Shown here piece by piece: positions 37,451 to 54,918 of a stretch of 64,000 nt of DNA; the first letter of the stretch is position 1; each line of letters starts with the position of its first letter. This DNA is from an uncultured Acidimicrobiales bacterium (lineage in GTDB: Bacteria > Actinomycetota > Acidimicrobiia > Acidimicrobiales > SHLQ01). The position numbers were made by a program, and so were the translations under genes. The notes under the pieces are model-generated. The model was not told the origin of the DNA. It was given only the letters and a program-made list of their open reading frames with translations, and searched no databases. The stretch spans positions 43,112 through 107,111 of the forward strand of contig CAZSYL010000002.1 of assembly GCA_964610745.1 (NCBI GenBank), written 5' to 3'.

Positions 37451-37457
37451 GGAAAAA

Positions 37458-37486
37458 GGGGTCAGGTTGTCTGTGACATTTTTCAC
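37458..37486 (+). repeat. Degenerate copy of the GGGGTCAGGT...TTTCAC repeat
   Basis: GGGGTCAGGTtgTCtgtgACatTTTCAC compared with the 21-mer GGGGTCAGGTCTCACTTTCAC at 46738-46981. The ends are shared and there are internal insertions. Confidence 0.5.
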
Positions 37487-37491
37487 ATGGG

Positions 37492-38484: not shown

Positions 38485-38644
38485 CGTCTTGCCCTTCCTC
38501 GCTCGGTGGAGCACCCATCGTAGAGACGCCATCGCGCATTGGGCACATCTTGGCGGACCCTGCTCCAGCTCCAGCGGCCGAAGCTCTTAACTCGAAGGGC
38601 TCATAGGGCAACAGGTTCGAGCGGCCCGTGGCCCGTACGCCCTG

Positions 38645-40588
38645 TTAGATCACTCGCTCGTTGCCACCGTCGATTGGGATCTGAGCGCCAGTCGTCTTCG
38701 AAAGCGTGCCATCGACGAGGGCAGTGACTGCGAGAGCCACATCCTGTGATGTGATTTCGGCAGACAAGAGATTCCGTGTCTTGTACTCCTCGACCGTCAT
38801 GTCATAGCGCTTGGCCGAGTTGGCCAGCACCTCGTCGGTCCAAAGACCGGTGTCAAAGACAGCATCTGGGTGGACGGCATTGACGCGGATCCCTTCGGGG
38901 GCGAGCTCCAGCGCCAGCACGCGCATCAACTGGGTCAGTCCGGCCTTCGAGACGCTGTACGCCCCAGCCCCGGCACCGGGGGCGGTCACATTCCTCGATG
39001 CGACGAACACAATCGCCGGGTCGACGCCGTGACGTAAATATGGGATCGCCGCACGGGCGAGCATCTGATGCGATGTGAGATTTACCTGCATCGAGGCAGA
39101 CCAGGACGCATCATCGAGGTCTTCGACACGCTGACCGGTCTGAAAGATGCCGACGGTCGACACGATGATGTCAAGGCCGCCGTAGTCGTGGACGACCTGG
39201 GCGAGCGAGCGCTCCACCATCTCAGCATCGGTGGCATCGACAATCCGTCCGGCGATTGAATCGTCCGTCAATTGGGTCACCGAATTCGAGATGTCGGCAG
39301 CGATGACGACCGCACCTTGCAACGCGAGTTCTTCGGCACATGCTCGACCGATCCCGGAAGCCGCACCGGTGACGTAGGCGATCTTGCCGGTCAGCACTTT
39401 CGGCGCAGGTTGACGACGAAGCTTCGCCTGCTCCAGTTCCCAGTATTCGAGTTCGCGAAGTTGTTCTTCGGTCAAGCCTTCCCAACCTCCGACTTCAACC
39501 GCTGGACCCATGGCCCGCATCGTGGTCGCTGCAACATCGGCCGAAACTCGAGCACGCTTGGCGTTCGGGCCGAACGAGCGCACCGACCCGTCCTCGAACA
39601 TTCCCCAGTGCGGGTGAGGGCTGAGCCTGGTGAGATTCGGATCGTTCGCCCGATCGACGTATGCGTTGTATCGATCTCTGAAGTCAGCCACCGAAGCTTC
39701 GAGGTCGTCGCCGAAGATGGCGGGGAATGGCTTGTTGTGAATGACGTGCTCGGGCGTGAGCACACCGCGGCTCACCATGTCGCCAACCGCCTCCACCGAC
39801 TCTGGGTCGATGTTGGTAGCCGGAAGCGAGATCTGCGCCCGCCCGGCTACTTCGCAGACGCACCGACGCGCCGTCGCGACCATGAGGGCATCGGAAGGTT
39901 CGATCGGTCGGAGAATCGAAGGCCCGAAGTTCTCGGAGAGATGTTGCTCGGCCTTGTCGACGAGGGCGATCGTCATCTCATAGCTCTCACGAGCATCGTC
40001 GGCAAAGGTGAATAGACCGTGATGCGAGGAGACGACACCATCGATATCGCCAAGCTGATCGATCACCGACGCGAACTGTTTGGCCAGGACGAAGCCCGGC
40101 ATGACATAGGGAAGCACGAGGACACGATCACCAAAGATGTCCGCCAGGCGCTCTTGGCCGTCTGGCAGATTCGAGACCGTGACGATCGAGTCAGCGTGTG
40201 TGTGATCAACAAACGTGTATGGAATGAGCCCGTGCACGATCGCTTCGATCGAGGGGTTGTTGGCGGTTGGAACGAACCGGGCTCGTAAGAGTTCGGCGAC
40301 CATGTCGGGGTCGCTGAGCGTGTCTAGATCAGCCAGTCGCGTCACGAGATCGCGCTTCATCCCGGTGAACCCTTCGACCCCCATCGTGGCGAGGTCGAAA
40401 CCGCTGGCCTTTACAAAGACACCATCGTGATCTTCGCCGAACCGGTCGGCCGAGATTGCCTTGACCGACGTGTTTCCCCCACCGTGGAGCACGAGCGCGC
40501 TGTCGCTGCCGATGAGGCGCGAGCTGTAGGCGCGCACGTCGAGGGGATCACCGGTAGGGGCATCGCTACCGTTCCATCTACTCTTCAC
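38645..40588 (-). CDS. Bifunctional class II aldolase/adducin-domain plus short-chain dehydrogenase protein (RhaEW-type rhamnulose-1-phosphate aldolase/lactaldehyde dehydrogenase family)
   Basis: 647 aa. The N-terminal half is aldolase-II-like (VLHGGGNTSVK...VDHTHAD). The C-terminal SDR has KIAYVTGAASGIGRA and YSVSKAG. The GTG start overlaps the upstream stop (GTGA). Confidence 0.85.
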   Translation of the reverse strand: MKSRWNGSDAPTGDPLDVRAYSSRLIGSDSALVLHGGGNTSVKAISADRFGEDHDGVFVKASGFDLATMGVEGFTGMKRDLVTRLADLDTLSDPDMVAELLRARFVPTANNPSIEAIVHGLIPYTFVDHTHADSIVTVSNLPDGQERLADIFGDRVLVLPYVMPGFVLAKQFASVIDQLGDIDGVVSSHHGLFTFADDARESYEMTIALVDKAEQHLSENFGPSILRPIEPSDALMVATARRCVCEVAGRAQISLPATNIDPESVEAVGDMVSRGVLTPEHVIHNKPFPAIFGDDLEASVADFRDRYNAYVDRANDPNLTRLSPHPHWGMFEDGSVRSFGPNAKRARVSADVAATTMRAMGPAVEVGGWEGLTEEQLRELEYWELEQAKLRRQPAPKVLTGKIAYVTGAASGIGRACAEELALQGAVVIAADISNSVTQLTDDSIAGRIVDATDAEMVERSLAQVVHDYGGLDIIVSTVGIFQTGQRVEDLDDASWSASMQVNLTSHQMLARAAIPYLRHGVDPAIVFVASRNVTAPGAGAGAYSVSKAGLTQLMRVLALELAPEGIRVNAVHPDAVFDTGLWTDEVLANSAKRYDMTVEEYKTRNLLSAEITSQDVALAVTALVDGTLSKTTGAQIPIDGGNERVI

Positions 40589-41811
40589 TTGGTGGAGGCT
40601 CCCATCAGCGAAACAAGTTGATCGACAGCGGCGTCGACAAAGACATCGTCTTCTGCCCCGGCGTCGATCTCGATGTAGCTGACCGAGTCTGGGAGAGCCG
40701 CCTGCAGAGCGTCGAGCAAAGCACGATCGGCATCCGCGTCGACGAGAGCGCCACCTGACGCTGAATAACTGCTGAGACCATTGGTTGGAGCCATCACGAC
40801 CGTGTTCTCACCAGCGTTTGCGAGACGCTGGCCGATCACCGAAGCGACGCCAGCCAGTTCCTCGGCGCTTGTGCGCGGAACGAGTATCACGGGGTTATGG
40901 AACGTGTAGGTACGGTTCGCGTACCTGTCGGGGACTTCGTTAGGTCCGTCGAGCATGATGCCGATGTGGTCGGTCCCGCCGGGCACGACCACCTGTGGCA
41001 GACCAAGCTCGGCCGCAACGGTGAGTCGGTCTTCATCAGAAGCGCGCAACCCGCCAAGTTCGGCGTCGCTCAGATCGCCAAGTGCGTAGTCGAAGACCGC
41101 ATCGATGACGCCTTCGCGCATCAGCTGCTCCATGGCACGACCGCCCGAGCCGACTGCATGAAAGACGATCGACTCGTAGCCTGCGGCGTCGAGGCGTTCC
41201 ATTGCGCGCATGGTCCCGGACGTGAGTACACCGAGGTTGGTGATGGCCACGACCGGGCGGGTGCGTTCGGTCAGACCCGTCCGAGGGACAGCTCCCATAC
41301 CAACAGCCGCTGCTGCTGCATTCGAGAGCACCTGACGCAGCAGTGGATTGACACCCAGAATGTCGCTCACCGAGAACATCATCGTGATGTCCTTGATCCC
41401 GACGTACGGCGAGGTGTCGCCCGAGGCCATGGTCGACACCATGATCTTTGGAAACCCATACGGGAGCGCCTGCATCACCTGAGACCCGTTGTTGGTTCCC
41501 TGGGTTCCACCCAGGCCTATGATTGCGTCGATCTTGCCGTCAGCGACGAGCTGGGTGGTGATCGCTATGGCACCAGCCACCATGACGGCCGATGCCACTT
41601 CGCGCGATGGGTTGACTCGAAGGTCGGCCAGGGATGTCCCACCGCGTTCGGCAACGGCACTGTTGGTGACGTCGACGTCTTGATCGGTGCCTCCCACGAC
41701 CCCGATGTCGATGATGTGAGGTGTACCGCCCGCGGTTTCGATGGCATCGACGAGGCACTTGACCTCCGCTGCCTTGGTATCCATCGTGGCCAGAATTGCA
41801 ACTGTCGTCAT
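40585..41811 (-). CDS. UPF0261 / Tm-1-like ATP-binding domain protein
   Basis: 408 aa. MTTVAILATMDTKAAEVKCLVDAIETAGGTPHIIDIGV is the typical N-terminus of this family. It is paired with the PEP-hydrolase-like gene, as is usual. Confidence 0.8.
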   Translation of the reverse strand: MTTVAILATMDTKAAEVKCLVDAIETAGGTPHIIDIGVVGGTDQDVDVTNSAVAERGGTSLADLRVNPSREVASAVMVAGAIAITTQLVADGKIDAIIGLGGTQGTNNGSQVMQALPYGFPKIMVSTMASGDTSPYVGIKDITMMFSVSDILGVNPLLRQVLSNAAAAAVGMGAVPRTGLTERTRPVVAITNLGVLTSGTMRAMERLDAAGYESIVFHAVGSGGRAMEQLMREGVIDAVFDYALGDLSDAELGGLRASDEDRLTVAAELGLPQVVVPGGTDHIGIMLDGPNEVPDRYANRTYTFHNPVILVPRTSAEELAGVASVIGQRLANAGENTVVMAPTNGLSSYSASGGALVDADADRALLDALQAALPDSVSYIEIDAGAEDDVFVDAAVDQLVSLMGASTK

Positions 41812-41858
41812 TCGTTCCCCCTGCTGATCATGTGTGCTTATTCGTTGGCGCGACGCGC

Positions 41859-42725
41859 CTAGGACTTGTCGGTGTATCGCAGACTCGCAAAGCCTTCGGC
41901 GGCCTCGGTCACGGCCTTCTCAATGGGAAGACGCTCGGTGGATGAGCCCGTCCAGAACCCGTCGGCCGAGGTGCAATCGAGCATGTACTGCGCGTCTTCC
42001 ACGGTCTCCATGGCCGCTCCATGACAAACCAAAAGCGTGTCGGGTGCGACCTCGCGCAACTTCACGAGCACTTCCTCGGTGTTGGCCGCGGTGGTTTCCA
42101 GGTCAATGCCGTTGTCGTATCCGGATAGGCCGCCCTTGGTCGTGCCGGCGTGAAAGCAGAAGACGTGCGGCTGTGCTTCCTCGCAGATCCGCAGGGCGTC
42201 CTCTTCGGTGAACGCAAGCCCGATCGACACCATGTTCATCTCGTCCTTGGCGAGCTTGAGCATCTCGATCTCGTTGTCGAGCGTGATACCCGCGCTGGTC
42301 AACACCTTGTAGATCTCCGAATCGTGATCGACGTAACTAATCGACGGGCCAATATTGGACACCGACTGAACACCCATTGCCTTAAGGTCGGCGAGCACCA
42401 TGCGCATGTCGCGCAACGGATCGTTCGCGTTGATGCATGCGCACACGAACGCGTCTCCGTTGAGCGCGGGCATGATGTCTTCGCGTGTGTAGTCGAGGGT
42501 CTGCTTGTTCGAGTCCAGGATCGGCCACATCATCGCCATCGTGCCCATGCCATTAGACCGCAGCCGCGCACCCGAGAAGGTGTTGATGCAGTCCGTGCCA
42601 GCCTTCTCCAGCAGTTTGGCCACCAGTCCCGATCCGGCGCTTGAGATCATGATGGGCAGCCCCGCCTCTTTCTTCTTCGCGAGGCGTTCGAGGATCTGTT
42701 CGGTGGTCACACGTTTCGTGATCAT
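41859..42725 (-). CDS. Phosphoenolpyruvate hydrolase-like TIM-barrel family protein (Tm-1 C-terminal domain homologue)
   Basis: 288 aa. LERLAKKKEAGLPIMISSAGSGLVAKLLEKAGTDCINTFSGARLR matches my recollection of this family. Confidence 0.75.
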   Translation of the reverse strand: MITKRVTTEQILERLAKKKEAGLPIMISSAGSGLVAKLLEKAGTDCINTFSGARLRSNGMGTMAMMWPILDSNKQTLDYTREDIMPALNGDAFVCACINANDPLRDMRMVLADLKAMGVQSVSNIGPSISYVDHDSEIYKVLTSAGITLDNEIEMLKLAKDEMNMVSIGLAFTEEDALRICEEAQPHVFCFHAGTTKGGLSGYDNGIDLETTAANTEEVLVKLREVAPDTLLVCHGAAMETVEDAQYMLDCTSADGFWTGSSTERLPIEKAVTEAAEGFASLRYTDKS

Positions 42726-43594
42726 GGTCGGTCTCCTGTTGGTTCTTCTTCGTTGGCAACGACCGACGCAATGAACGAGTTGATCGCATCGGTGACAAAG
42801 TCCTGGTGGGCGTGCGGCTCGATGTAACGAGCGGGGGCGAGCAGCGAGGTTGCGTTGGGTAGTGCCACGGCGGTTTCGTCCGCTATCTCAGTCGGGTGCA
42901 AGGGATCGCGCTCGGTGGCGACGACGAGCGCCGGTTGAGTTACGGCTGCGAGGTCGGCAAGGTCGTCGATTGGATGGGAGTCGACCATGGCACCGAGAAC
43001 ATCGGGTCGACCGGTCTCCTCAACGCCGTCGATGGTCCGAGCAATGCTCGCTGCGGCAAGTGGAACCGTCGCCTCGATCTCCTGAAAGCGGCCGTCCGAT
43101 TCGAGGATGCCGCGAGCGGAGGAGACCCCGTCGCGATCGATCCAGGCGCCCATGGCGGCGATGATGTCGAGGTGTGGACGTCCAGGTTGGTCGGTCCAGG
43201 CTGGGCGAACGAGCACAAGTCCGGATACGCGTTGAGGAAAGTCCAGCGCGATTCGTAGCGCAATGCCCGAACCCATGGAGATACCACCGAAGATGGCTCG
43301 CTCAACATCGAGCTCATCGAGCAGGTCGACCATCGCATCGGCGAACGAACCGAAGCTGAGCGGTACCGCCGACCGGGCCGACTCGCCATGTGCTGGCGCG
43401 TCGATCACGATTCGCCGAACGCCCGAAACGCCCACAATCGCTGCCTGTGCCTGGGAACGAGATCCGCCAAGTCCGTGCAAGAACACGAGCGGGTATCCAA
43501 CGCCATCGTCGGAGAACGCGAGCCCGCTCGAGCCACGTTTCTCATTCGCTCGCTCCGGCCGTCCCACCCTTTGCACTGTACGGAGTAACCACAA
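42722..43594 (-). CDS. Alpha/beta hydrolase fold protein
   Basis: 290 aa, containing LVFLHGLGGS and the nucleophile elbow GISMGSG. The start is TTG at 43594; two GTG codons a few codons downstream are alternatives. It overlaps the next gene by 4 nt (ATGA). Confidence 0.75.
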   Translation of the reverse strand: MWLLRTVQRVGRPERANEKRGSSGLAFSDDGVGYPLVFLHGLGGSRSQAQAAIVGVSGVRRIVIDAPAHGESARSAVPLSFGSFADAMVDLLDELDVERAIFGGISMGSGIALRIALDFPQRVSGLVLVRPAWTDQPGRPHLDIIAAMGAWIDRDGVSSARGILESDGRFQEIEATVPLAAASIARTIDGVEETGRPDVLGAMVDSHPIDDLADLAAVTQPALVVATERDPLHPTEIADETAVALPNATSLLAPARYIEPHAHQDFVTDAINSFIASVVANEEEPTGDRP

Positions 43595-43650
43595 CGCTGT
43601 CAGGAAGCATTGGAGCTAGCGCCAAAGAACTAGTCACCAGGGATTTGTCT

Positions 43651-43686
43651 CGGGGTGCCTGGTCGTTTCGACGACGCAGGCACCCC
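43651..43686 (-). terminator. Long GC-rich hairpin after the 5'-nucleotidase gene (terminator candidate lacking a U-tract)
   Basis: CGGGGTGCCTGGTCGT-TTCG-ACGACGCAGGCACCCCG forms a stem of about 16 bp with one bulge. It sits 18 nt downstream of the stop at 43704. The U-run lies on the 5' side only. Confidence 0.5.
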
Positions 43687-43703
43687 GAAAAACAACGTGC
43701 TAC

Positions 43704-45998
43704 TTACTCGGCGAGAGGGACGATGCTCTGCGTCGAGAAGTTCTCAGGAGCCGACAAGACACCTTCGACATCTTGTTCGATGTAGTCGATGAAGATCTGC
43801 GCGTACTCGAGGAGCGTGTCCTCTAGACGACCGTCTTCAGCGACTGCTTCGAAGGTGAAGTAGCCATCGCCACCGCCAGCGGTGAAGCTGTTCGTCGCCA
43901 CCGTGAAGGTGGCAGCGGGATCGAGCGCAACGAACTCGCCGTCGATGAGCACCTCGATGTTGGAGAGGCGCTCACCGTCGGCTGCATTCAAATCGACGTC
44001 CCAGCGGATGCCCGCACCATACGGGTACGCACCGGTCGATCCATCGGGATCGATCGAGAAGGCGACCGCCTCTTCGAGAACCGCTGCAACTTCCTCGCCG
44101 GTCATCTCAAGGTTGACGATCGTGTTCGCGAACGGCAACAGCTCGAAGACGTCGGCGATCGTGATATCACCCTCAGGAATGTCGATACGAATGCCACCGG
44201 AGTTCTGGATAGCTATGTCAGCTTCGAACGAGCGTGCCAGGAAGGCATCGGTAACGAGCTGCTGGATGTCGCCACCGTTGACAGCTGTATCGGCAACGTC
44301 GCAGATCTGGCTGCGACCCTGACCGGGAATGCGCTCGAGGCAAAGATCCTCAGTCGCCTCACCAATCACCTGCTGTTGAAGCACTTCGACCTGTCCGGAG
44401 AACTGATCGAGCACCGCAGCTGCGTCGGCGTCAGGGGTGACGATCGAGAGCTCAGGCGTTGCTTCGACAAAGGCAATGACCTCGTCGCGAGCCTCACCGG
44501 TGAGTTCCTCACGATCGGCATCCTCTGATGGCTCACGCTGAAATGAGTCTGCGAGCAGAAGATGTGGTGTTCCTTCGCAGCTACTCACAACCCCGTCCTC
44601 GTCGAAGCTGACGTTGAGTTCACCGACAACCCAGCTGAACTGCCAGGCCTGAACAACACATACCGGGTTTCCATCAGCGTCGGTTACCCGCTGTGGGTAC
44701 TCACCGCTGGTGTTGAGTCCGAGATCCCCGAAGTTGCCGAGGAGCGAGTGGCTGTCGCCGCCGACGATGACGTCGACGCCGCTGACCTGCGATGCAAGGT
44801 CGAGGTCGTTCGCAAGCTGAATATGCGTGACGAGCACGATCTTGTTGATGCCCGCAGCACTGAGTAGATCGATCTGCGCCTGAGCGGTCTCGATCTCGTC
44901 GAGGAACTCTGTCGTGTCGAGTGGGCTCGAAGAGTTCTGCGTCTTGCCCGCAATGTTGATGCCGACATAGCCGACTCGCTCGCCGCCTTCGTATTCGATG
45001 ATGACGTTGTCGTCAAAGATCTTGTCGCCATTAGGAGCGAGCGGTGTGCCCGGTGCGGGAATGACGTTTGCGCCAAGCGTCGAGGTCTGACAGCTGTCGG
45101 ACCCATTGAGGTGACCAAGGAAATCGGCCAGACCCTGGTCGGAGCTATCAAACTCGTGGTTGCCGAGAGCAAACACATCGAAGCAGGCTTCATTCATGAG
45201 CGCCGCGTCGGCTTCTCCACCGAAGAGGCTGAAGAAGAGCGTGCCGGTAATCGCATCGCCAGCGTGAACCTTGACGACCTCACCGCTTGCGTTGGCTGCC
45301 AGCTCGTCGATCTTCGATACAACGCTTGGGAAGCCTCCGAACTGCACGCGGGTTTCGCCGCCTGGAAGTTCGAGATCACCCGAGTCGCTTTCGAGATGAC
45401 TGTGGTGGTCGTTGATGTGAAGGATCGTCAGATCGAACGGAGCGCCAGCAGGAGCACCGTCGTCTCCTCCTCCATCGCCGGGTTCGTCGACCGGTGGTGG
45501 TGGATCACCAACCGGAGCCCTCGCTCCGTCGGTGACGCTGTCCTCGCCCGGTCCGGGCCACAACGTGTTATCACCGCCGCCACCCTCAAGCTCATCGTTA
45601 CCGGCTTCGCCGAGCACGATGTCGTCGCCCTGGGCGCCGCGGAGCACATCGTCGCCGTTCCCACCGAAGAGGGTGTCGTTGCCCGCTCCGCCTTGGACGA
45701 TGTCGTTGTCGTTTCCGCCTTCAATGCGGTCGTCGCCCGGACCGCCAATGAGGATGTCGTCACCGGAATGTCCGCATATCGTGTCATTGCCCGCTCCGCC
45801 GTTGATGGCATCGGGACCGAGCGATCCAAAGATGACGTCGTCGCCATCAGTACCTACCGTGAGGATGCCGGACTCCTCGACGAGGATCGTCACCTCTTGA
45901 CCTCCACACGTCAGTGCGCCCTCGGCCGACACATTTGGTGCAGTGGCAACCAGTGCGCCCACCAGAGCGAGCGCTAGGCCCGCAGCTTTCAGTCTCAT
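43704..45998 (-). CDS. Secreted bifunctional metallophosphatase / 5'-nucleotidase with N-terminal RTX-type calcium-binding repeats
   Basis: 764 aa with the signal peptide MRLKAAGLALALVGALVATAPNVSAEG. About nine GGxGxD nonapeptide repeats occupy aa ~48-150. These are followed by ILHINDHHSHLE, GNHEFD and a 5'-nucleotidase C-terminal domain. Confidence 0.88.
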   Translation of the reverse strand: MRLKAAGLALALVGALVATAPNVSAEGALTCGGQEVTILVEESGILTVGTDGDDVIFGSLGPDAINGGAGNDTICGHSGDDILIGGPGDDRIEGGNDNDIVQGGAGNDTLFGGNGDDVLRGAQGDDIVLGEAGNDELEGGGGDNTLWPGPGEDSVTDGARAPVGDPPPPVDEPGDGGGDDGAPAGAPFDLTILHINDHHSHLESDSGDLELPGGETRVQFGGFPSVVSKIDELAANASGEVVKVHAGDAITGTLFFSLFGGEADAALMNEACFDVFALGNHEFDSSDQGLADFLGHLNGSDSCQTSTLGANVIPAPGTPLAPNGDKIFDDNVIIEYEGGERVGYVGINIAGKTQNSSSPLDTTEFLDEIETAQAQIDLLSAAGINKIVLVTHIQLANDLDLASQVSGVDVIVGGDSHSLLGNFGDLGLNTSGEYPQRVTDADGNPVCVVQAWQFSWVVGELNVSFDEDGVVSSCEGTPHLLLADSFQREPSEDADREELTGEARDEVIAFVEATPELSIVTPDADAAAVLDQFSGQVEVLQQQVIGEATEDLCLERIPGQGRSQICDVADTAVNGGDIQQLVTDAFLARSFEADIAIQNSGGIRIDIPEGDITIADVFELLPFANTIVNLEMTGEEVAAVLEEAVAFSIDPDGSTGAYPYGAGIRWDVDLNAADGERLSNIEVLIDGEFVALDPAATFTVATNSFTAGGGDGYFTFEAVAEDGRLEDTLLEYAQIFIDYIEQDVEGVLSAPENFSTQSIVPLAE

Positions 45999-46265
45999 TT
46001 TCTCCCCGTTTCATTCCAAAGGTTGGTTCTAATCGCATCCTTGTGTGAATGAGACTCTCTGTCCAGCGACTTTGGTTAAAAGACGACGAACTGTGGGAAA
46101 AATGTCGATTCATCTTCATCACGCCCCCCTTTGTCCCCAACGCTGGGAGAAGAGTTGGACTCACAGCACTAAGTGTTACTGGGCAACGATGCGCATCGCC
46201 ATGCCGTACCAACTCCGCGCCCTATGCCTCTCAGCTCGAGACAGCCCGGCCATACTGAGAATGCC

Positions 46266-46700
46266 ATGACGATGACGAACGAACGCCTCGATGCCATGAT
46301 TCGCGAGCATGCCGACGCCATACATCACAGCGACCTCGGTCGCTGGCAGTTCGACTACTACGGGCACAGCGTCATCGTGCTCACCGACGAGGTGCACAAC
46401 CGGATGCGGGTCATGACCCCGGTCGGTGAAGCCGCGGCGATGGACGAAGAACTGGCGATGGAATGTTTGCGTGCGAACTTCGACCGGGCTCTCGATGCCC
46501 GCTACGCAATCTCTGGCGACTACGTATGGAGCGCATTCATCCACCCACTCAGCGAGCTCAACGTGTCACAGGTCGTCGACGCGTTCAACCAGGTTGTCAG
46601 TCTCGCCGCCACCTACGGCACGAGCTTCACGAGCGGCAGCCTCGCCTTTGGACGCGCCGAGCAAGACACTAGCGACGAAGACGACCAGACCGACGGGTAA
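46266..46700 (+). CDS. Small acidic cytosolic protein, possibly of the secretion-chaperone-like (CesT/YbjN) superfamily
   Basis: I trimmed the track ORF to the ATG at 46266 (MTMTNERLDAMI). The pattern HNRMRVMTPV...LRANFDRALDARYAISGDYVWSAFIHPL resembles T3SS-chaperone-like families, from memory. Confidence in the function is low. Confidence 0.5.
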   Translation: MTMTNERLDAMIREHADAIHHSDLGRWQFDYYGHSVIVLTDEVHNRMRVMTPVGEAAAMDEELAMECLRANFDRALDARYAISGDYVWSAFIHPLSELNVSQVVDAFNQVVSLAATYGTSFTSGSLAFGRAEQDTSDEDDQTDG

Positions 46701-46737
46701 GACCAGTAGCCCGCAACCAAGCTCGCTGTGGCGAAAT

Positions 46738-46981
46738 GGGGTCAGGTCTCACTTTCACCCATAGTCCCTACGGGGTCAGGTCTCACTTTCACTTGCTGCG
46801 ACGTTGATCAGCCGAAACTCAACGGTTTGGGTGTGCAGCCTCGGACTTCATCACCTTGGCAGCCCGACTGTCGACAGCGGTTAACGAGCGACGACCGTTG
46901 TGAATTCAACAGCCTGAGGGCAAGTGCGTGAAAGTGAGACCTGACCCCAATCAATATGCAGTGAAAGTGAGACCTGACCCC
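46738..46981. repeat. Array of four copies of a 21-nt repeat, two direct and two inverted
   Basis: GGGGTCAGGTCTCACTTTCAC occurs at 46738-46758 and 46772-46792. The exact reverse complement GTGAAAGTGAGACCTGACCCC occurs at 46928-46948 and 46961-46981. The two inverted copies share a further AATCA. The array fills the convergent intergenic gap between 46700 and 47023. Confidence 0.9.
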
Positions 46982-47022
46982 AATCAGGATGGAGTGGGGT
47001 CCTCCTGATCTGGGAGAGAACA

Positions 47023-47421
47023 TCACGGGCCGTTGATGTCCTCTCGTCGCATGGCGATATCGGCCTCTAGCGTTCGCCCTCCAATTCCAATGATCGGCAC
47101 GCCATCGACTTCGGCGGTCACGGTCACCGTGACGAACTCGGTGCCCACGCTCGTCGACACGATTGCCTCGCCGACCGAACGTCTCGCTGCCGCGGTCGCT
47201 ACAGCCGATGCCGCTTCCGGCTCGACAGCCGCGGCCCTCGCACCTTCCCGCGCCGCGTTCTCAAGCCGAACCTGCATGGTCATCAACTGACCAACCCACA
47301 CAATGCCCGCAACACACAACACGAGCAGCGGGAGGATCAGCGCCATTTCCAGAGTGGCCTGACCTCGATCGTCTCCAAGGTCTCGCCGAGCTCGGCCCTG
47401 ACCCTCGCCGCTGCGCCACAT
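47023..47421 (-). CDS. TadE-like pilus/pseudopilin protein (helicase/secretion-neighbourhood type)
   Basis: These are the last 132 codons of the 258-aa track ORF. DDRGQATLEMALILPLLVLCVAGIVWVG is a TadE-type N-terminus. The start is proposed at the ATG at 47421, abutting the flp-like stop. Confidence 0.7.
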   Translation of the reverse strand: MWRSGEGQGRARRDLGDDRGQATLEMALILPLLVLCVAGIVWVGQLMTMQVRLENAAREGARAAAVEPEAASAVATAAARRSVGEAIVSTSVGTEFVTVTVTAEVDGVPIIGIGGRTLEADIAMRREDINGP

Positions 47422-47627
47422 CAGACGCGACCGATGATCGAGTCGATCACGGCATCGAAAAGCTCGGCTATCTTCCCTGTTCCTGAAGCCCAAGTCACCA
47501 CAATTAGAGCAATTGTGGCGACGCCGAGAAGGAGCAGAGCGTACTCGGCGGTGGATTGCCCCCGGTCGTCGACGAGCCGACTGCGAAGGGCGTGACCCAG
47601 GCGAAGAGCGATGGTTGTTTGCAACAT
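47421..47627 (-). CDS. Flp-like pilin, DUF4244 type (Rv3656c-like)
   Basis: 68 aa. The leader is followed by DDRGQSTAEYALLLLGVATIALIVV, a G/xxxxEY-type processing motif with a hydrophobic stretch. Confidence 0.75.
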   Translation of the reverse strand: MLQTTIALRLGHALRSRLVDDRGQSTAEYALLLLGVATIALIVVTWASGTGKIAELFDAVIDSIIGRV

Positions 47628-47723
47628 GATCGTTGCTCACTTTCAGTAGTTCATTGATTGGGCCTGCAGTCGCTGAATGCGCTGGGCCGAGACTTGCGAG
47701 CAACAGCTCGCACGATTGGATTT

Positions 47724-48242
47724 TCAGGTCGGAAGACCCGAAAGGGCTTCGACCAGCAGTGGTGCAATCGCCAACAGGACGAAGGCCGGAAGGATGCACA
47801 GCACGAGAGGAAACAGCAGGGACACGGTGAGCCGTTGCGCTGCCTCGTCGAGAGCGTTGGCCCGGTGGCGACGCAGATCGCGGATCAGAAACTCAAACTG
47901 CAATTGAAGCGAACCACCATCATGTTCGGCTCGACGCAACACGTCGAGCACGCGAACAATCTCGGGGGTCGGACCTCCACCGCGGGCCGTCTCGAGAATC
48001 GCGGTGTCGAGCGACGCCCCGAGTCGCAATCGCTCGTCGACCTCGGCGAAGTCCCGCGCAACGACACTCACCGCTCCCCCGGCAGTCGTGAGACCACAGA
48101 CCGATGAGATTGCCGCCCGGGGACTTTGGCCAGCGGCGGTGGCCAGGCTTAACAATGTCACGACCGCGGGCAGGCCGGTCGCGCGGTCGTGAGCGAGCTG
48201 ACGTGCCGTCCTTCGTTTCTTCAGAATCGACTCACCACTCAT
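47724..48242 (-). CDS. tadC: Type II secretion system F-domain protein, TadC-like
   Basis: 172 aa with a T2SSF-like soluble segment and C-terminal TM helices (LTVSLLFPLVLCILPAFVLLAIAPLLV). It overlaps the upstream gene (ATGA). Confidence 0.7.
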   Translation of the reverse strand: MSGESILKKRRTARQLAHDRATGLPAVVTLLSLATAAGQSPRAAISSVCGLTTAGGAVSVVARDFAEVDERLRLGASLDTAILETARGGGPTPEIVRVLDVLRRAEHDGGSLQLQFEFLIRDLRRHRANALDEAAQRLTVSLLFPLVLCILPAFVLLAIAPLLVEALSGLPT

Positions 48243-48838
48243 GCCAACCTCCGGAGCAGTCGTCGAATCCAGACCACCCCGACCAGATCGAACGCCAGGC
48301 CACCGGCCAGGAACACCGCGCCGAGTCGGCTGCCATAGACGAACCCGCGGGTCACCGAAGCCACCAACGCAAACACGAGCGGAAGCACCACCAGTACCGC
48401 AGCCGACATCTGGTTCTGCGTCAGCAGAATGCGACGCCGCTTGTCGTGGTCGACATCCTCACGAATGGCCTCGCCGACAGCATCGAGCGCGACCGCCAGA
48501 TCGGCTCCGGTGCTTACCCCCATCTCGATCACTCCGACGAGAAGCCGCTCCGCGTCAGATGTGGTGTGCGCAGCCCAATCGCGGCCAACTTCGGCGAACG
48601 GACGACCGACCGAGACGTGCGCGGCGGCAATGCGCAACGATCGGTGTTCGTGACCCATATCCTCATCCACCTGTACGACCGCCGACTCCAACGGAACACC
48701 TGCCCGGATAATCCGGGCCAGCCGCAGAGCGATTTCGGGTAGTTGTTCATTTGGCGACCGCACTCGACCGAACCGACCAGGACGGGGCCGGTGGAACGGG
48801 CGCGTCGTGCTGCGAGAAGCGGGTCGGCGCGTCGTCAT
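48239..48838 (-). CDS. tadB: Type II secretion system F-domain protein, TadB-like
   Basis: I trimmed the track ORF to the ATG at 48838, which overlaps the tadA stop (ATGA). It has C-terminal TM helices (MSAAVLVVLPLVFALVASV...). Confidence 0.7.
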   Translation of the reverse strand: MTTRRPASRSTTRPFHRPRPGRFGRVRSPNEQLPEIALRLARIIRAGVPLESAVVQVDEDMGHEHRSLRIAAAHVSVGRPFAEVGRDWAAHTTSDAERLLVGVIEMGVSTGADLAVALDAVGEAIREDVDHDKRRRILLTQNQMSAAVLVVLPLVFALVASVTRGFVYGSRLGAVFLAGGLAFDLVGVVWIRRLLRRLA

Positions 48839-49968
48839 GGCTGACCACCTGCGACAGACAGCTCGTACTCGGTCGTCATTTGCCACTGATTCGTCGGCGT
48901 GTCGGGCACGGCCGTGATCGAGGCGACCTGACGCCGACCATCGGGGCGTCGAGCCACCATCACCAGCAGATCGATGCACGAGGCCAGCTGTTCTCGAATC
49001 GCGGCAAGCGGCAGGTCAGCATCCCCAAGCAGCATCATCGTCTCGATCCGGCGTAGCGCATCAGCGGGCGTGTTTGCGTGCACCGTCGACATCGAACCAC
49101 GATGACCGGTGTTCATCGCCTGAATCAGATCGAGTGCTTCAGCGCCGCGCATCTCCCCGCAAATGATTCGATCGGGGCGCATTCTCAGCGCATGGCGGAC
49201 GAGCGTCCGCAAGCCAACCTCATCCACGCCTTCAGAAGCATTACGAGTCTCGAGCCGCACGACATGACCGCACTGCAGTCGGAGCTCTGCGGCATCTTCG
49301 ATCGTGATGATGCGAGTCTCCGAATCGATCCCATCGGCCAGCGCATTGAGCAACGTCGTCTTGCCTGAAGACGTTGCGCCTGCGACCACAATTGTCGAAG
49401 CATCAACGACGGCCTGGCGCAACAGCTGCGCTGCCTCGGGTTCACACATGTCGTCGAGGCTCACCCGGGCGTTGGTGAAACGACGGATCGTGATGCAAGG
49501 CCCATCCACCGCCAACGGCGCAATGATGCCGTGCAACCGCGAACCGTCGGCCAGGCGAACATCGACGCTCGGGTTTGCCAGATCGATGCGACGGCCGGAC
49601 TGGGCCGCGAGGCGACGCAGCAAGTGGTCGACATCGTCCTGTTCGACCCGGCGCCCAGTGTGCACCAACCGACCGGCCCGCTCGACCCACACCTCGCCTC
49701 CACCGTTCACCATGATCTCGGTGACCGACGGATCCGCAGCGAACTCGTGAAGCGGCCCGAGCCCATCGATTCGAGCTCGGACTTCGGCAACGATCCCTTC
49801 TCTACGTTCCGCCGGCGCCAGGGGAGCCAGTGTCGAGACGAGCTCGTCAATCCGGCCGAGCATCTGTGCGGTATCGCGGCCAACTGCGTCATCGATGTCA
49901 CGCCAGAGCGCCTCGTGGATCTGGCGAACCACCGTGTCATTGGACGGCCCCACGTCGGCGGCTACCAC
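48835..49968 (-). CDS. tadA: TadA/CpaF-family secretion ATPase
   Basis: 377 aa with Walker A VVAGATSSGKTTLLNAL, IITIEDAAEL, RPDRIICGEMRGAEA and the His-box GHRGSMSTVHAN. Confidence 0.9.
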   Translation of the reverse strand: MVAADVGPSNDTVVRQIHEALWRDIDDAVGRDTAQMLGRIDELVSTLAPLAPAERREGIVAEVRARIDGLGPLHEFAADPSVTEIMVNGGGEVWVERAGRLVHTGRRVEQDDVDHLLRRLAAQSGRRIDLANPSVDVRLADGSRLHGIIAPLAVDGPCITIRRFTNARVSLDDMCEPEAAQLLRQAVVDASTIVVAGATSSGKTTLLNALADGIDSETRIITIEDAAELRLQCGHVVRLETRNASEGVDEVGLRTLVRHALRMRPDRIICGEMRGAEALDLIQAMNTGHRGSMSTVHANTPADALRRIETMMLLGDADLPLAAIREQLASCIDLLVMVARRPDGRRQVASITAVPDTPTNQWQMTTEYELSVAGGQP

Positions 49969-50741
49969 GACTCGACAACCTCGTGACGCGACCCGAACAT
50001 CTCGCGATGACCTGATCGTTCGAACCCGATGGGTACGTTTTCTGATGAGTACTCGTGAAGCAGATCTGCAACGAAGCGTCGCAAGGCTCGCGGCCGTTTC
50101 GACACGAGCGTTCCACTGTCTACCGAACGAGCAATAGCAGGATTCACGCGGAGTCGAGCGGTGACCGCGGTACCAACGACCGCCTCAACATCGAGCGTTC
50201 GAAGCGCTCGCCCGTCCTCACAAATTTCCACCACTGTGTCCAAGGTGATCGGCACTTGGGTAGCGCGTCGCAGAGCGAGATAGCACGGACGCAACACGAG
50301 GGTTCGTCGATCGCTCGCTGTTCCGATCAACGCTCGGGGCGAGGTTGCTTGAGAGCGAACAACGCCGAGATCGGCAACGACCGTTCCGAGCTCACCCAGA
50401 CCTTGCACCATTTCGGCAATGCGTCCCGGGTCGACCGATCCGACTTCGGTCGGAAGCGCACCACGGCCAGCTGGCAACAGGCTCAGACCGGGCAGCACCG
50501 GAACGAGGAGGCTTTCGAGTGCAGCGAGCTCGACCGGTTCGGAGGACGTCAACCAATCGACCACGCCGTGACGGTCGCTGGCGTCGACACCGAGCATGTC
50601 GGGTTGATCGCCTCCGAAGTCGACGAGCACGACCCCGTGACGGGCAGACCACGGCTCGCGAAGCGCCAGCTCGAGTGCGAGCGATGCTGAAACGACCGAG
50701 GTACCGACTCCACCTTTGGTGGCATGAACAGACCAGAACAT
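49962..50741 (-). CDS. CpaE/Ssd-like ParA-MinD family protein with a degenerate Walker A
   Basis: 259 aa. The N-terminus reads HATKGGVGTSVVSASLA, i.e. KGGVGTS instead of KGGxGKT. It is the first gene of the Tad-like operon, as with Rv3660c in M. tuberculosis (from memory). Confidence 0.7.
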   Translation of the reverse strand: MFWSVHATKGGVGTSVVSASLALELALREPWSARHGVVLVDFGGDQPDMLGVDASDRHGVVDWLTSSEPVELAALESLLVPVLPGLSLLPAGRGALPTEVGSVDPGRIAEMVQGLGELGTVVADLGVVRSQATSPRALIGTASDRRTLVLRPCYLALRRATQVPITLDTVVEICEDGRALRTLDVEAVVGTAVTARLRVNPAIARSVDSGTLVSKRPRALRRFVADLLHEYSSENVPIGFERSGHREMFGSRHEVVESW

Positions 50742-50960
50742 GACGAAGCTCTCCCAATCGGCGCGTCCGAACGCGCCACAAACAGTTGGGGGAAGAGGTC
50801 AGCTCTGCCAGAAAAGCCGGTCAGAAGCGAGAGACCGACATTGCGAAGTGCCGGTAGTAGAGACCATGCCAAACAGCAGAACTGGGCGACAAGTTGAGCG
50901 TAAGAGGATGGGCTTCGTGTCAGGATGTCTCGGCTTCACTCGAACACCACCTTGTTGGGC

Positions 50961-52172
50961 TTAGTCGTTGATGATGCCTTCATCTGATAGACGGTCCCGT
51001 TCTGCCCGGGAGAGTCCGAGTCCCGCGAGGATCTCGTCGGTGTGTTCGCCAACCTTTGGATGAGGGCCCTGCGGCCCGACATCGGCGCTGTGAAACTTCA
51101 AAGGGTTCGCAACGGTGGAATACGCGCCAATCTCAGGACTCTCGAGTGTCGGGAACATGTTGAGCGCAGCCGCCTGCGGGTCGGTGACAACCTCGTGCAA
51201 GGCAAGAACCGGCCCCCAAATCAGACCCGCCTCATCGAAGACCTCACCCCATTCGTCCCGACTCCGCTCCAACAACGCTTCATCGACTGCGGCTACCAAC
51301 GCGGGCATGTTCCTGAAGCGACTCCGCATATCCACAAACCGCTCGTCTTCGAGCAGGTGAGAGGCGCCAATCGTTTCGGCGAAGAGTGGCCACGCCGACT
51401 CCTCGGCCATGTTGACCACGATCCACTTGCCATCACCGCAGGGATAACGATTCGCCGTCACGACAATCTGGCTGTCTCGCGCCCGCTGGCGTAGCGGTGC
51501 CTTATCGACAGCGGTCACGCTGTAGTCGGTCGCCTGAGTCCAAACGGCGGTTTCGAACAGCGACGACTCCACCACCTGTCCCTCGCCGCTTCGCTCGACC
51601 AAACGCAGTGCGGACACAATCGCTCCATACAGAGCAAGCCCAGTGGTGTGATCGCCTTGAGCCGGCCGTGCCATCGGAACATCACCATCGACTCCCTCTC
51701 GCATAGCGTCGTACAAGCCCGATCGACCAAAGAACGCCGTCACGTCGTACCCCGGGCGTTTGGCATCAGGGCCGGTAGTTCCGTACCCCGTGCACGTCGC
51801 GTGTACCAGCTTGGGATTCGTGTCTAACAACGTCGATGGGTCGAGGCCGAAACGTTCTTGGCGATGCTTCAACAGGTTGCACAAGAAGACATCGGCTGAG
51901 GCGACCAAAGATCGCACGAGTTCAGCGCCATCGCTGGAGCCGATATCGATCGCAACCGACTTCTTTCCACGGTTCGAAACGTCGAACTGGTAGTCGTACG
52001 ACTTCAGCTCGTCAGGCAGTTTGGGCGGGCGCATCATGTTGCGCATCGGGTCACCGGATAGCGGTTCGACCTTGATCACCGTCGCGCCCATGTCGGCGAG
52101 AATGGCTCCACACGATGGAGCCGCCATCCAACTGTCGACCTCAATCACCGTTATGTCATCGAGTGGCTTCAC
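50961..52172 (-). CDS. Family III CoA-transferase (CaiB/BaiF family)
   Basis: 403 aa. DDITVIEVDSWMAAPSCGAILADMGATVIKVEP is the typical N-terminus. Confidence 0.88.
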   Translation of the reverse strand: MKPLDDITVIEVDSWMAAPSCGAILADMGATVIKVEPLSGDPMRNMMRPPKLPDELKSYDYQFDVSNRGKKSVAIDIGSSDGAELVRSLVASADVFLCNLLKHRQERFGLDPSTLLDTNPKLVHATCTGYGTTGPDAKRPGYDVTAFFGRSGLYDAMREGVDGDVPMARPAQGDHTTGLALYGAIVSALRLVERSGEGQVVESSLFETAVWTQATDYSVTAVDKAPLRQRARDSQIVVTANRYPCGDGKWIVVNMAEESAWPLFAETIGASHLLEDERFVDMRSRFRNMPALVAAVDEALLERSRDEWGEVFDEAGLIWGPVLALHEVVTDPQAAALNMFPTLESPEIGAYSTVANPLKFHSADVGPQGPHPKVGEHTDEILAGLGLSRAERDRLSDEGIIND

Positions 52173-52269
52173 CCGCCCAAACTAGGTCGAGAGCGCAGCT
52201 CAGACCTGATCAGAACTCCCTCGAGAGGCGTCGAGCTAGGGTCGAGCGTGTGAATCCAAGAGGTGTGAC

Positions 52270-53301
52270 ATGAAAATCGTTCGAAGCGACGCCCATCGCC
52301 TGCACTTTCCGACAGGTGAGCTGTATCGCGGTGAACTCGTGCGGCCTTTTGAGTCTCCCGAGCGCATCGACTACATCAACGCCGCTCTCGAGACAGTGGG
52401 CTTCGATGACGAAGTCGAGGTCTCGCCGGTCGAAGACGCGCTGCTCAACCAGGTCCACGATGCCGCGTACGTCGAGTTTCTCCGCACGGCGTGGTCGGAG
52501 TGGACCTCGCTCGGCAAGACCAACGACATGATTCCCTCCTGCTTCCCCGTTCGGCGAACGAACTCGCATATCCCAACGCACGTCGACGGCAAACTCGGCT
52601 GGTACGCATTCGCCGCCGAAACCTCGATTACACACGGGACGTGGGAAGCAGCACACGGAGCAGCCTCGCTCGCACGGACAGCCCAGCGAGCAGTGAGTGC
52701 CGGAGCCCAGTCAGCTTTTGCCTTGTGTCGACCACCGGGCCATCACGCATCGGCCGACTACTTCGGTGGCTACTGCTTCCTCAACAACGCAGGCATCGCA
52801 GCACAGGGTTTTCGCAACGACGGCGCGGCTCGAGTTGCCATTCTCGACGTCGACTTTCACCACGGCAACGGCACCCAAGACATCTTCTACTCCCGCGAGG
52901 ACATCTTCTTCGCGTCATTACACGGCGACCCCGCGTTCGAGTTTCCCTACTTTCTCGGCCACGCAGACGAGACCGGCAGCGGACCTGGCGAGGGATACAA
53001 CGCGAACTACCCGCTGGCTCCGGGGACGACATTTGATCTGTGGCTCGAAGCCTTCGACGATGCGCTACGTCGAATCATGTCGTTCGGGCCTGACGCCCTC
53101 GTCGTATCGCTCGGCGTCGATACCTACGAAGCCGACCCGATCAGTTCGTTCAAGCTGAGCTCCGATGACTTCATCACCTACGGCGAGCGTTTCGGCGCCC
53201 TGGGGTTGCCCACCGTCTACGTGATGGAGGGCGGTTACGCCGTCGAAGAGATTGGCACCAACACGGTCAACGTGTTGGTCGGCCACAGCAACGCTGAATA
53301 G
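52270..53301 (+). CDS. Histone deacetylase-family amidohydrolase (acetylpolyamine/acetoin-utilisation type)
   Basis: 343 aa, containing ALCRPPGHHA, ILDVDFHHGNGTQDIF and YVMEGGY, which are the Zn-binding residues of the HDAC fold. Confidence 0.88.
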   Translation: MKIVRSDAHRLHFPTGELYRGELVRPFESPERIDYINAALETVGFDDEVEVSPVEDALLNQVHDAAYVEFLRTAWSEWTSLGKTNDMIPSCFPVRRTNSHIPTHVDGKLGWYAFAAETSITHGTWEAAHGAASLARTAQRAVSAGAQSAFALCRPPGHHASADYFGGYCFLNNAGIAAQGFRNDGAARVAILDVDFHHGNGTQDIFYSREDIFFASLHGDPAFEFPYFLGHADETGSGPGEGYNANYPLAPGTTFDLWLEAFDDALRRIMSFGPDALVVSLGVDTYEADPISSFKLSSDDFITYGERFGALGLPTVYVMEGGYAVEEIGTNTVNVLVGHSNAE

Positions 53302-53452
53302 CGCCATCTCGCGCCGAGAAAAAGGAACCCAGTCGACAGCGTGAAACTCGTCGCGGAATTTTCGGGAACCAGATTCAGATTCTCAGCGTAAAAGCTCACA
53401 CACAACAACGAGATGGCCGAATGGAACCCAAACTTCGGCGGAAGGCATTCCC

Positions 53453-54826
53453 ATGTTTAAGAAGGCAGCACTCACGTTCACGGTGATCGGCATGGTTATC
53501 GTGGCATGGTCTGGAATAGCGGGCGCATGCGGCGGATTCTTCTGCCAGGCCACCCCCGTCGACCAAACCGGCGAACGAATCGTGTTCACCGTGAACGACG
53601 ACGAGACGATCACGACCCTCATCGAGATCCTCTACCAGGGTGAGGCAGAAGACTTCTCCTGGATCCTCCCGATCCCGGAGGCAATCAGCGCAGACGACCT
53701 CCAGGTGCCCGATGACGGCCAACTTGTCTTCGACGAACTCCACGCGATGACCGACGTACAGCTCATCGCTCCAAATCTGCCTGAGTGCGCACAGGATGCT
53801 CTGACGGTCGCCGAAGTCGCCGACGCAGCAGCAGATGATGGTGGTGTCGACATCTTCGCGAGCGGCGAGGTTGGCCCGTTCGGATTCGATGTCATTGGCT
53901 CCGATGACCCCAACGCACTTATCGACTGGCTCCGCGACACCAACTACCGAGTCACCCCTGAGATGGAACCCCTCATCGACATCTACGTCGAACGAGAGAT
54001 GGCCTTTATTGCTATGCGACTCCTCGACGGCGAAACCGCAGACTCGATCCAACCCATCGAAATCACCTACCCCGGCACCGAGCCGATGATCCCCCTGCAG
54101 CTCACCGCTGTCGCAGCACAACCCAACTTGCCGATCTGGGTTTGGCTCTTCGGCGAAAGCCGAGCGGTACCAACGAACTTCGCGGAGATGGAGATCGCCA
54201 CCGAAGAGATCACCTTCTTCCCGGGCGGCGCTAACGACTACCCGTTCCTCGTCCAGCAACGCGCGAACGCCTTCGATGGACAGGCATTCATCACTGAATA
54301 CGCGCAAGCGGTCAACCCGAGCGATTTCCTCCACCCCTGGCTCGTAGACCAAAGCGAAGCCGCCCCATACCTGACACGGCTCAACACGTTCATCGACCCT
54401 GAAGAGATGACCGCTGACCCAACGTTCGGGTTCGACGACACCCTCGGCGATGTATCCAACATCCGAGATGCCAGCGACCTCGGCGGCCTTTACAGCTGCG
54501 AACGTGACGGCGGTGGCGGCGGTTTCCTTGGTTCGATCTTCGGAGGCGGCAGCGAAGACGCCATCGACCCAACCAACGGCACCGGACAGGTCGTTGCCTT
54601 CACCCCCGACGCTTCCGAGGATGAGGCCGCTGACGGTGGCGACGACTCCGCCGAACCAATCGACGGTGACTCAACCGACATCGATACTGACGTCCCCGAC
54701 ACCCTCGCCCAGGCCGACACCGATGCTGAATCCTCAGGAAATGGCCTGCTCATTCTCGTCGCCGCCATCGGGGCAATGCTTCTGATCGGCGTCGGCTTCG
54801 CAGCGGGTCGTGGTCGTAGTAGCTGA
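53453..54826 (+). CDS. DUF2330 domain-containing secreted/membrane-anchored protein
   Basis: 457 aa. The signal-anchor is followed by GACGGFFCQATPVDQTGERIVF, the characteristic DUF2330 start. It also has an acidic C-terminal linker and a terminal TM helix (LLILVAAIGAMLLIGVGFAAGRGRSS). Confidence 0.8.
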   Translation: MFKKAALTFTVIGMVIVAWSGIAGACGGFFCQATPVDQTGERIVFTVNDDETITTLIEILYQGEAEDFSWILPIPEAISADDLQVPDDGQLVFDELHAMTDVQLIAPNLPECAQDALTVAEVADAAADDGGVDIFASGEVGPFGFDVIGSDDPNALIDWLRDTNYRVTPEMEPLIDIYVEREMAFIAMRLLDGETADSIQPIEITYPGTEPMIPLQLTAVAAQPNLPIWVWLFGESRAVPTNFAEMEIATEEITFFPGGANDYPFLVQQRANAFDGQAFITEYAQAVNPSDFLHPWLVDQSEAAPYLTRLNTFIDPEEMTADPTFGFDDTLGDVSNIRDASDLGGLYSCERDGGGGGFLGSIFGGGSEDAIDPTNGTGQVVAFTPDASEDEAADGGDDSAEPIDGDSTDIDTDVPDTLAQADTDAESSGNGLLILVAAIGAMLLIGVGFAAGRGRSS

Positions 54827-54834
54827 CCGAACTT

Positions 54835-54866
54835 GTGGTCACCCGCATGCCGATGCGGGTGACCAC
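54835..54866 (+). terminator. Perfect 14-bp hairpin after the DUF2330 gene (terminator candidate without a U-tract)
   Basis: GTGGTCACCCGCAT-GCCG-ATGCGGGTGACCAC, beginning 9 nt after the stop. Confidence 0.55.
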
Positions 54867-54918
54867 GATCGCACCGTCATGACCCCAGACGGCCTTCCTT
54901 GCGCAATATGGTGGAGCC

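Follow-up and report, generated by a model that had tools for sequence, protein, structure and literature searches.

The window, meaning the whole 64-kb stretch of DNA that was analysed, contains a small repeat array where two convergent genes leave a gap. Exactly four identical copies of the 21-mer GGGGTCAGGTCTCACTTTCAC occur there, two direct and two inverted. The features of the locus are as follows:

46266-46700, + strand: 144-aa flanking gene, outside the element (called as a gene in L025-L030)
46737-46982, no strand: the whole gene-less element, two doubled inverted ends and a centre, delimited by inverted repeats
46738-46758, + strand: 21-mer copy 1, the outer left end site (exact match)
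46772-46792, + strand: 21-mer copy 2, the inner left end site, 34 nt past copy 1 (exact match)
46793-46927, no strand: diverged 135-nt centre, with blocks such as GCGACGACCGTTGTGAATTCAAC that are common to other gene-less copies
46928-46948, - strand: 21-mer copy 3, the inner right end site (exact match)
46961-46981, - strand: 21-mer copy 4, the outer right end site, 33 nt from copy 3 (exact match)
47023-47421, - strand: TadE-like gene, the last of a Tad/Flp pilus operon, outside the element (Pfam TadE, 51.6 bits)

The copy period is 34 nt in the left pair and 33 nt in the right pair, a 135-nt centre separates the pairs, and AATCA directly follows both right-hand copies. All of these values, together with the coordinates, had been given in the first-pass annotation and were confirmed exactly. 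The outermost arms reach 22 nt, and the resulting element of 246 bp has the form TG...CA. The chance expectation for the 21-mer was 0 in 100 dinucleotide shuffles, and no further match to it was found in the 64-kb window, even when 3 mismatches were allowed. On direct reading of all copies, CTAC was found to precede copy 2 only and a consistent GTAG tag was absent. The array occupies the convergent gap between the stop codons of the 144-aa gene (46700, + side) and the TadE-like gene (47023, - side), as had been described. The TadE-like gene was called as 132 aa in L025-L030. The 144-aa gene has 525 homologues, with no Pfam match on record for any of the 120 listed, and it adjoins the Tad/Flp pilus operon in two species. 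A planctomycete homologue, 50% identical at the protein level, is named a type III secretion chaperone in one source.

An RNA stem in which the two outer copies (1 and 4) pair with each other, as do the two inner ones (2 and 3), had also been proposed, and the predicted RNA fold agrees with it (-130 kcal/mol, z = -7.9). When folded as DNA, single units and same-side pairs gave -2 to -4.4 kcal/mol with z values of -0.7 to +0.7, and they have no self-complementarity. No Rfam family was detected at gathering thresholds in the whole window, a permissive Rfam scan of 46600-47100 gave chance-level matches only, and no consensus intrinsic terminator or promoter was found at the array. Just beyond the right end of the element, at 46983-47009, the sequence contains an inverted repeat with 7-bp arms (ATCAGGA ... 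TCCTGAT). The loop between them holds GTGGGGTCC, which is similar to the head of the 21-mer and may be a decayed fifth copy of the repeat, and a strain SNP (A to G at 46989) lies within the stem.

Six independent metagenome assemblies of the same population (L025-L030) carry the same array with all four 21-mers intact and, therefore, the array is not an assembly artefact. These conspecific assemblies are 99.7-99.96% identical over 22 kb. The only differences here are SNPs, three of them in the centre and one in the flank, and a 12-nt tandem duplication. The duplication was seen in strain L027, which also has three centre SNPs, and it affects the last 12 nt of the outer right end, TGACCCCAATCA (window-equivalent ~46971-46982). 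This could be due to slippage between the two AATCA-tailed copies, or it could be a processing footprint.

When one genome per prokaryotic species was scanned, exact copies of the 21-mer turned up in 17 stretches, all belonging to three Acidimicrobiales MAGs, and 21-mer arrays were seen at unrelated loci in at least four species. The MAG CALHXU has about 30 copies at about 8 loci. Its contigs break at or beside the repeats (L013 and L011 overlap by 24 nt, as determined by script, and L009 and L016 by about 120 nt, as judged by eye); the repeat family fragments this assembly, and the counts are thus lower bounds. The first-pass annotation had set a motif confined to this locus beside one of hundreds of REP-type units, and the census would place it at neither extreme: tens of copies were seen in the fragmentary MAGs and the 64-kb window. 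The window's own genome yielded one cluster only, the one within the window.

Several arrangements of the repeat occur in CALHXU. The gene-less elements with two direct and two inverted copies (the 2+2 form; L005, L017 and L008) have centres of 154-157 nt, and there are also a 1+2 form (L007) and a 2+3 form across a contig break (L013 and L011). The tails of four gene-less copies (L005, L007, L008 and L017) match the ends of a resident gene at L015. Contig L056 carries two gene-less 2+2 clusters, again with the same tail as the ends of the resident gene. At L009 (1771-2646, running into L016), two direct 21-mers 55 nt apart and one inverted 21-mer surround a 225-aa ORF (1898-2575, - strand) without a Pfam match, which could be a passenger gene inside the repeat ends.

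Variant GGGGTCGCGTCTCACTTTCAC arrays with a 34-nt period are present in the MAGs JAHDEJ (L002, L003, L004, L006, L010 and L014) and CALBVR (L001 and L006). These arrays have a tight central hairpin of 21-28 bp with an 8-nt loop. In all the arrays seen, an AG-variant arm pairs with a GC-variant arm around a fixed 2-nt internal mismatch, in a sample that is biased since only arrays containing the AG variant were retrieved.

The first-pass annotation had looked to transposase genes as possible partners of the motif, and a RAYT-class Y1 gene bracketed by the 21-mers was indeed found in relatives. At L015, identical 21-mers in the 2+2 layout bracket a 309-aa ORF. This ORF matches Pfam Y1_Tnp with 36.6 bits (cut-off 23), and its best NCBIfam match is REP_Tyr_transpos with 43.8 bits, below the 80-bit equivalog cut-off. 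Homologues of the 309-aa protein were retrieved by protein similarity alone, and their contigs were then examined. Eight lineages retrieved in this way (45-67% identity) have doubled inverted 2+2 ends with a 33-34 nt period, including the following:

61-67% identity, 2+2 ends: L018, L019/20, L021-23, L024, L073 and L074 (the L074 contig ends past the first right-hand copy)
45% identity, 2+2 ends: L077/78

A ninth relative, a 38% identical protein from Thioalkalivibrio, has a looser arrangement, with one left and two right copies of GGGGTCAGGTCTAG, 186 nt apart. An 11-14 nt core, GGGGTCAGGTC(TCA), is conserved across the cassettes and is followed by lineage-specific 3' tails (CTTTCAC, TTCTCAC, ACATCAC, TTCATAA or CCCAGGAACCAGG). 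The core GGGGTCAGGTCTCA found in copy 1 is common to all cassettes of the Acidimicrobiales clade, and no other full or degenerate copy of the core was found elsewhere in the window. In three distant cassettes (L039, L040 and L075) the left and right tails differ, which leaves the core alone able to pair between one end and the other. The transposase stop codon is immediately next to the inner right repeat or overlaps with it. In four lineages, whose proteins are 61-66% identical, the gene has an aldehyde dehydrogenase gene on one side and a rhodanese gene on the other; in L024 it is at another site.

A conserved leader consisting of TTGTCA, CTTCCCCCTG, an 8-12 nt loop and CAGGGAAA separates the inner repeat from the ATG. 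It was found at L015 2760-2830 and upstream of the ATG in L018, L019, L021, L024, L073, L074 and L077. The leader hairpin could control translation or transcription of the transposase. On the Thioalkalivibrio sulfidiphilus chromosome (L075/L076), the transposase gene and an upstream 124-aa ORF are tandemly duplicated in identical-length units 1821 nt apart; the units lie among toxin-antitoxin genes and each has GGGGTCAGGTCTAG ends.

In an alignment of 24 members of the protein family, the HUH histidines H60/H62 and the motif Y119-x-x-x-N123-P124 are invariant. The family profile matched E. coli TnpA-REP (4er8) over residues 11-143 (E = 0.0025) and several structures of DnaA domain IV over residues ~216-313 (E = 3.5e-11 to 1e-8). 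DnaA domain IV is an HTH that binds duplex DnaA boxes. Both 4er8 and DnaA were reached by the family profile only, as a phmmer search of the PDB with a single transposase gave no match. Pfam Bac_DnaA_C was detected in 9 of the 24 members, and not in L015 at E <= 0.01. There is no Y1 transposase gene in the 64-kb window, and none of the retrieved homologues matched as the window population's own enzyme: P0003 and P0005 have the right 21-mer but come from other samples, and P0023 is from the same sample series and has a different tail.

A metagenome scan for two cores 17-22 nt apart returned 34 more contigs, and 13 of them carry a homologous transposase gene (30-47% identity), mostly beside or between the repeats. 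Because this search required the core, the set shows spread and not conservation. The exact 21-mer was absent from JGI metagenome contigs and from IMG/VR viral contigs (0 matches each), and the double-core pattern had 0 matches in the viral contigs.

[quoted passage not shown] Most TIRYTs belong to subclass 2.1 of TnpA-REP, whose proteins are long and end in Bac_DnaA_C/HTH tails and whose genes lack neighbouring REP hairpins; further analysis was said to be needed (Quentin 2018, PMC6006769). The signature of class 2 TnpA-REP is HuH, Y---NP and a C-terminal HTH (Bac_DnaA_C/HTH_23/HTH_28). TIRYTs (subclass 2.1) are said to occur in about 15% of sampled strains. In the searchable literature the term TIRYT turned up in two papers only, or three records with a preprint copy included.

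The 21-mer starts with GGGGTCAG, which agrees with GGGGWSAS. In relatives (L015 and the eight lineages) the repeats flank a RAYT-like HUH/Y1 gene, which the window lacks, and the protein is long, with the class 2 motifs and a C-terminal HTH of the Bac_DnaA_C type. Gene-less TIR copies are dispersed in the genome of CALHXU and, within a single contig, in L056, and the end of the gene is adjacent to the 3' TIR or overlaps with it. The repeat and the protein thus fit all the listed features of TIRYTs and subclass 2.1. There are also differences from the published description. The ends here are tandem doublets with a 33-34 nt period, although the published Figure 9 may already show doubled TIRs. 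The 11-14 nt core extends well beyond the published 8-nt motif, and the 14-nt core, in either orientation, had no match in the searchable literature or in the supplementary text of Di Nocera. Here there is a distinct gene-less family of ~246-265 bp with a homologous centre of 135-157 nt, and the host is an actinobacterium of the Acidimicrobiales type, whereas the classification papers do not mention Actinobacteria or Acidimicrobi-.

We conclude that the array is likely a non-autonomous, gene-less member of the TIRtron/TIRYT family, with ends that are the sites of a RAYT-class HUH/Y1 transposase encoded elsewhere. Judging from its relatives, it is probably a REPIN/MITE-like derivative that is recognised in trans by such a TIRYT. 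Among the identities that the first-pass annotation had offered, a REP/BIME-like or MITE-like element came nearest, in that this is an end repeat of the RAYT family with dispersed gene-less copies; it is not a classical REP.

The centre of the element was compared with those of the other short elements, to which it is 40-51% identical. Among the gene-less copies the centres are 40-68% identical and the 21-mers are essentially invariant, so that constraint is much stronger on the ends than on the middle. The summed local alignment score of the window centre against other gene-less centres had a z of 5.6 (0/300 shuffles), and the flipped orientation had a z of 1.7, so that homology was significant in one orientation only. 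On these scores, the window centre is weakly but significantly homologous to the other gene-less copies. No tblastn trace of a RAYT coding remnant was found in the 135-nt centre, and the cassette leader (CTTCCCCCTG-loop-CAGGGAAA-ATG) is absent from it and from all short elements. Because of the missing leader, a recent origin of the short elements by internal deletion from the cassette was rejected. Predicted folds place a local hairpin at about 46874-46901 in the window centre, and all five centres compared have a GC-rich hairpin of 7-9 bp ~30 nt inside one end. A covarying central hairpin was considered and dropped, since these hairpins are out of register across the five centres and are suggestive only.

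One explanation to be weighed against a mobile gene-less unit is an in-situ relic, in which a full TIRYT cassette at this junction lost its gene and left its four end repeats behind. This is unlikely. Full cassettes do have this very 2+2 layout, but the centre has neither a transposase trace nor the cassette leader and is homologous to centres of gene-less copies at unrelated loci. Also, the resident gene is at a different, conserved locus (aldehyde dehydrogenase/rhodanese) in four lineages.

The junction, which the first-pass annotation had singled out for comparison with relatives, lacks the element in a sister species (L031-L034). A 138-aa gene, 78% identical to the window's 144-aa gene, lies there at the same TadE/Tad operon junction, the stop-to-stop gap is 23 nt compared to 322 nt in the window, and the core motif is absent. 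The gap in the window also contains 36 + 40 nt (76 nt) of spacer that is unalignable to the sister species, and the empty site is thus not base-exact. Within the limits of a comparison that is not base-exact, the element and the 76 nt of spacer are an insertion relative to the sister species.

A second explanation is that the array evolved at this locus to regulate the Tad operon or its neighbour in cis, or to terminate transcription in both directions, with the repeats as sites for a host regulator. The convergent 3' gap and the very stable predicted double stem (z = -7.9) would suit such a role, and REP-like elements are known to influence termination and the stability of mRNA (background given in Di Nocera et al. 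2013, PMC3733652). However, 21-mer arrays are found at unrelated loci in at least four species and bracket a transposase gene, and the sister species does without the element in a 23-nt gap. With no consensus intrinsic terminator or promoter at the array, a dedicated regulatory function is very unlikely, but a side effect on transcripts may still exist.

A conventional MITE moved by a DDE transposase with multiple subterminal sites, such as those at IS21-, Mu-, Tn7- or IS630-type ends, could have the TG...CA termini and the two binding-site-like repeats per end that were observed here. Direct reading of about 10 copies, including the window, L005, L017, L008, L007 and L015, revealed no target-site duplication, which argues against this explanation. 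Y1 enzymes are not expected to produce target-site duplications, and this absence is as expected for them. In addition, an HUH/Y1 gene is the only gene between such ends in all the protein-retrieved lineages, and no DDE transposase was found at any locus, making a DDE-driven MITE highly improbable.

The alignment with the sister species also located the variable DNA near the array. The following segments are conserved:

L031 1-3056: window 30817-33861
L031 4984-5371: window 46248-46636
L031 5441-9250: window 47023-50803
L031 9821-10416: window 54875-55470

Compared to the sister species, there is a variable block of 12.4 kb at about 33.86-46.25 kb, and its right edge is upstream of the conserved 144-aa gene. 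With a conserved gene on either side, the array is a separate small insertion, and it is not the end of the accessory block as had been claimed. The 12.4-kb block (33861-46248) encodes a 5'-nucleotidase, hydrolases, UPF0261, aldolase/SDR, sortase, DUF4397 and glycosyltransferase proteins, and L031 has a 1.9-kb GT61 region in its place. A second replaced block of ~4 kb (50803-54875) has CoA-transferase, histone-deacetylase-like and DUF2330 genes, and L031 has a DUF1304 gene there. That the array is a recombination or boundary site for the variable DNA (attC-like R''-L''...L'-R' or att-type), as the first-pass annotation had suggested for a 14-kb insert, is scarcely credible: the two-plus-two inverted layout formally resembles an integron attC and the block is nearby, but the block ends at about 46.25 kb and not at the array, there are no integrase or recombinase families among the called genes of window 33.7-56.0 kb, and no second motif occurs at the other edge of the block or elsewhere in the window. 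CRISPR arrays have repeats of >= ~23 nt in the same orientation, unique spacers of >= ~26 nt and usually cas genes. A CRISPR array, already discounted in the first-pass annotation, was rejected here too, with spacers of 12-13 nt, mixed orientation, four copies and no cas families among the called neighbours.

The gene-less TIRtron/TIRYT element can also be compared with other systems of the same enzyme class. As in REPIN-RAYT systems (Bertels & Rainey 2011; Bertels et al. 2017), gene-less inverted units are dispersed in extragenic space, and a cognate RAYT-class gene, apparently in low copy number, has the same repeats on either side at a position conserved across four lineages, which may reflect vertical inheritance. 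A further REPIN-like trait is the predicted pairing of the 2+2 inverted arms (1:4 and 2:3), and the whole unit is homologous between loci. In contrast, the arms here are separated by a 135-nt centre in place of a short spacer, the unit is not palindromic and has no GTAG, the copies seen number tens and not hundreds, and the transposase has an extra HTH.

A classical REP unit is an imperfect palindrome of 20-40 nt with its own stem-loop, present in hundreds of copies per genome. The classical REP/BIME elements of enterobacteria and pseudomonads share with this family short extragenic repeats, arrays of direct and inverted copies, a location in 3' intergenic gaps and an associated HUH/Y1 enzyme homologous to E. 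coli TnpA-REP. Unlike a classical REP, the unit here has no stem-loop of its own (z about 0) and no GTAG (or CGTC) head. IS200/IS605 elements have in common the HUH/Y1 core (Pfam Y1_Tnp) and the lack of a target-site duplication. Their ends are distinct subterminal hairpins read as single strands, whereas the ends here are doubled non-palindromic inverted repeats; they are also multicopy elements, in contrast to a gene at a conserved locus, and the Y-motif here is of the class 2 Y---NP type.

These comparisons suggest how the element might move. The cognate transposase would have an N-terminal nuclease domain (HUH, Y-x-x-x-N-P) and a C-terminal DnaA-domain-IV-like HTH, and its gene would be elsewhere in the genome, typically single and bracketed by the same 2+2 repeats. 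The transposase would bind every 21-bp site, plausibly in duplex form by means of the HTH, with two sites per end spaced about three helical turns apart, and would then synapse the doubled ends. The Y1 domain would cut and rejoin single strands at the element boundaries without target duplication. By this single-strand chemistry the unit may have been moved or copied into the convergent 3' gap, where it would be tolerated. As a by-product, transcripts from either side might form the long double stem, and this may slow 3' decay or hinder read-through; the element could plausibly terminate or stabilise the convergent transcripts. The distribution of the gene-less element points to mobility. No excision or insertion event was seen, and all six conspecific strains have the element.

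The four phased sites for a sequence-specific protein that the first-pass annotation had proposed would suit a transposase with a DnaA-domain-IV-like HTH. Duplex binding by this HTH is offered as a hypothesis, with much lower confidence than the identification of the element. Possibly the protein recognises individual sites, perhaps as duplex DNA through the HTH, and there is evidence both for this and for a hairpin substrate. Recognition of individual sites is favoured because single units and same-side pairs are unstructured (z about 0), because the left and right tails differ in L039, L040 and L075, and because the two sites of a doublet keep a constant distance of about three helical turns. 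On the other hand, the tight hairpins formed by the JAHDEJ and CALBVR repeats and the compact gene-less clusters of L056 favour a single-strand hairpin substrate. GGGGWSAS has been noted to bear no resemblance to a DnaA box (Quentin et al. 2018, PMC6006769). No biochemistry on any TIRYT was found in the literature searched.

For the window, these findings remove a false lead, as the array is neither an island boundary nor a dedicated regulatory site. TIRYTs are a known but barely studied kind, to which this array is newly added; in the literature searched, a single figure of the 2013 paper is all that describes their repeat biology. The family offers a compact set of substrates: the 21-bp site is defined exactly, its doublets keep a fixed spacing of 33-34 bp, a gene-less element of 246 bp and an empty site occur naturally, and tail variants exist in nature alongside the diverged enzymes to which they belong. 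This set could decide between duplex sites read by the DnaA-like domain and hairpins formed between inverted arms. A more speculative proposal, which we regard as possible though doubtful, is that a Y1/HUH lineage switched from single-strand hairpins to duplex DNA by using a DnaA-domain-IV-like HTH on phased pairs of non-palindromic 21-bp sites. The core GGGGTCAGGTC would be read by a conserved part of the protein and the tail would co-evolve, in a small, long-lived, vertically inherited REPIN-like population in Acidimicrobiales. 'Domesticated replicator' systems have not been reported from Actinomycetota in the literature searched and, if true, such a population would extend them to that group.
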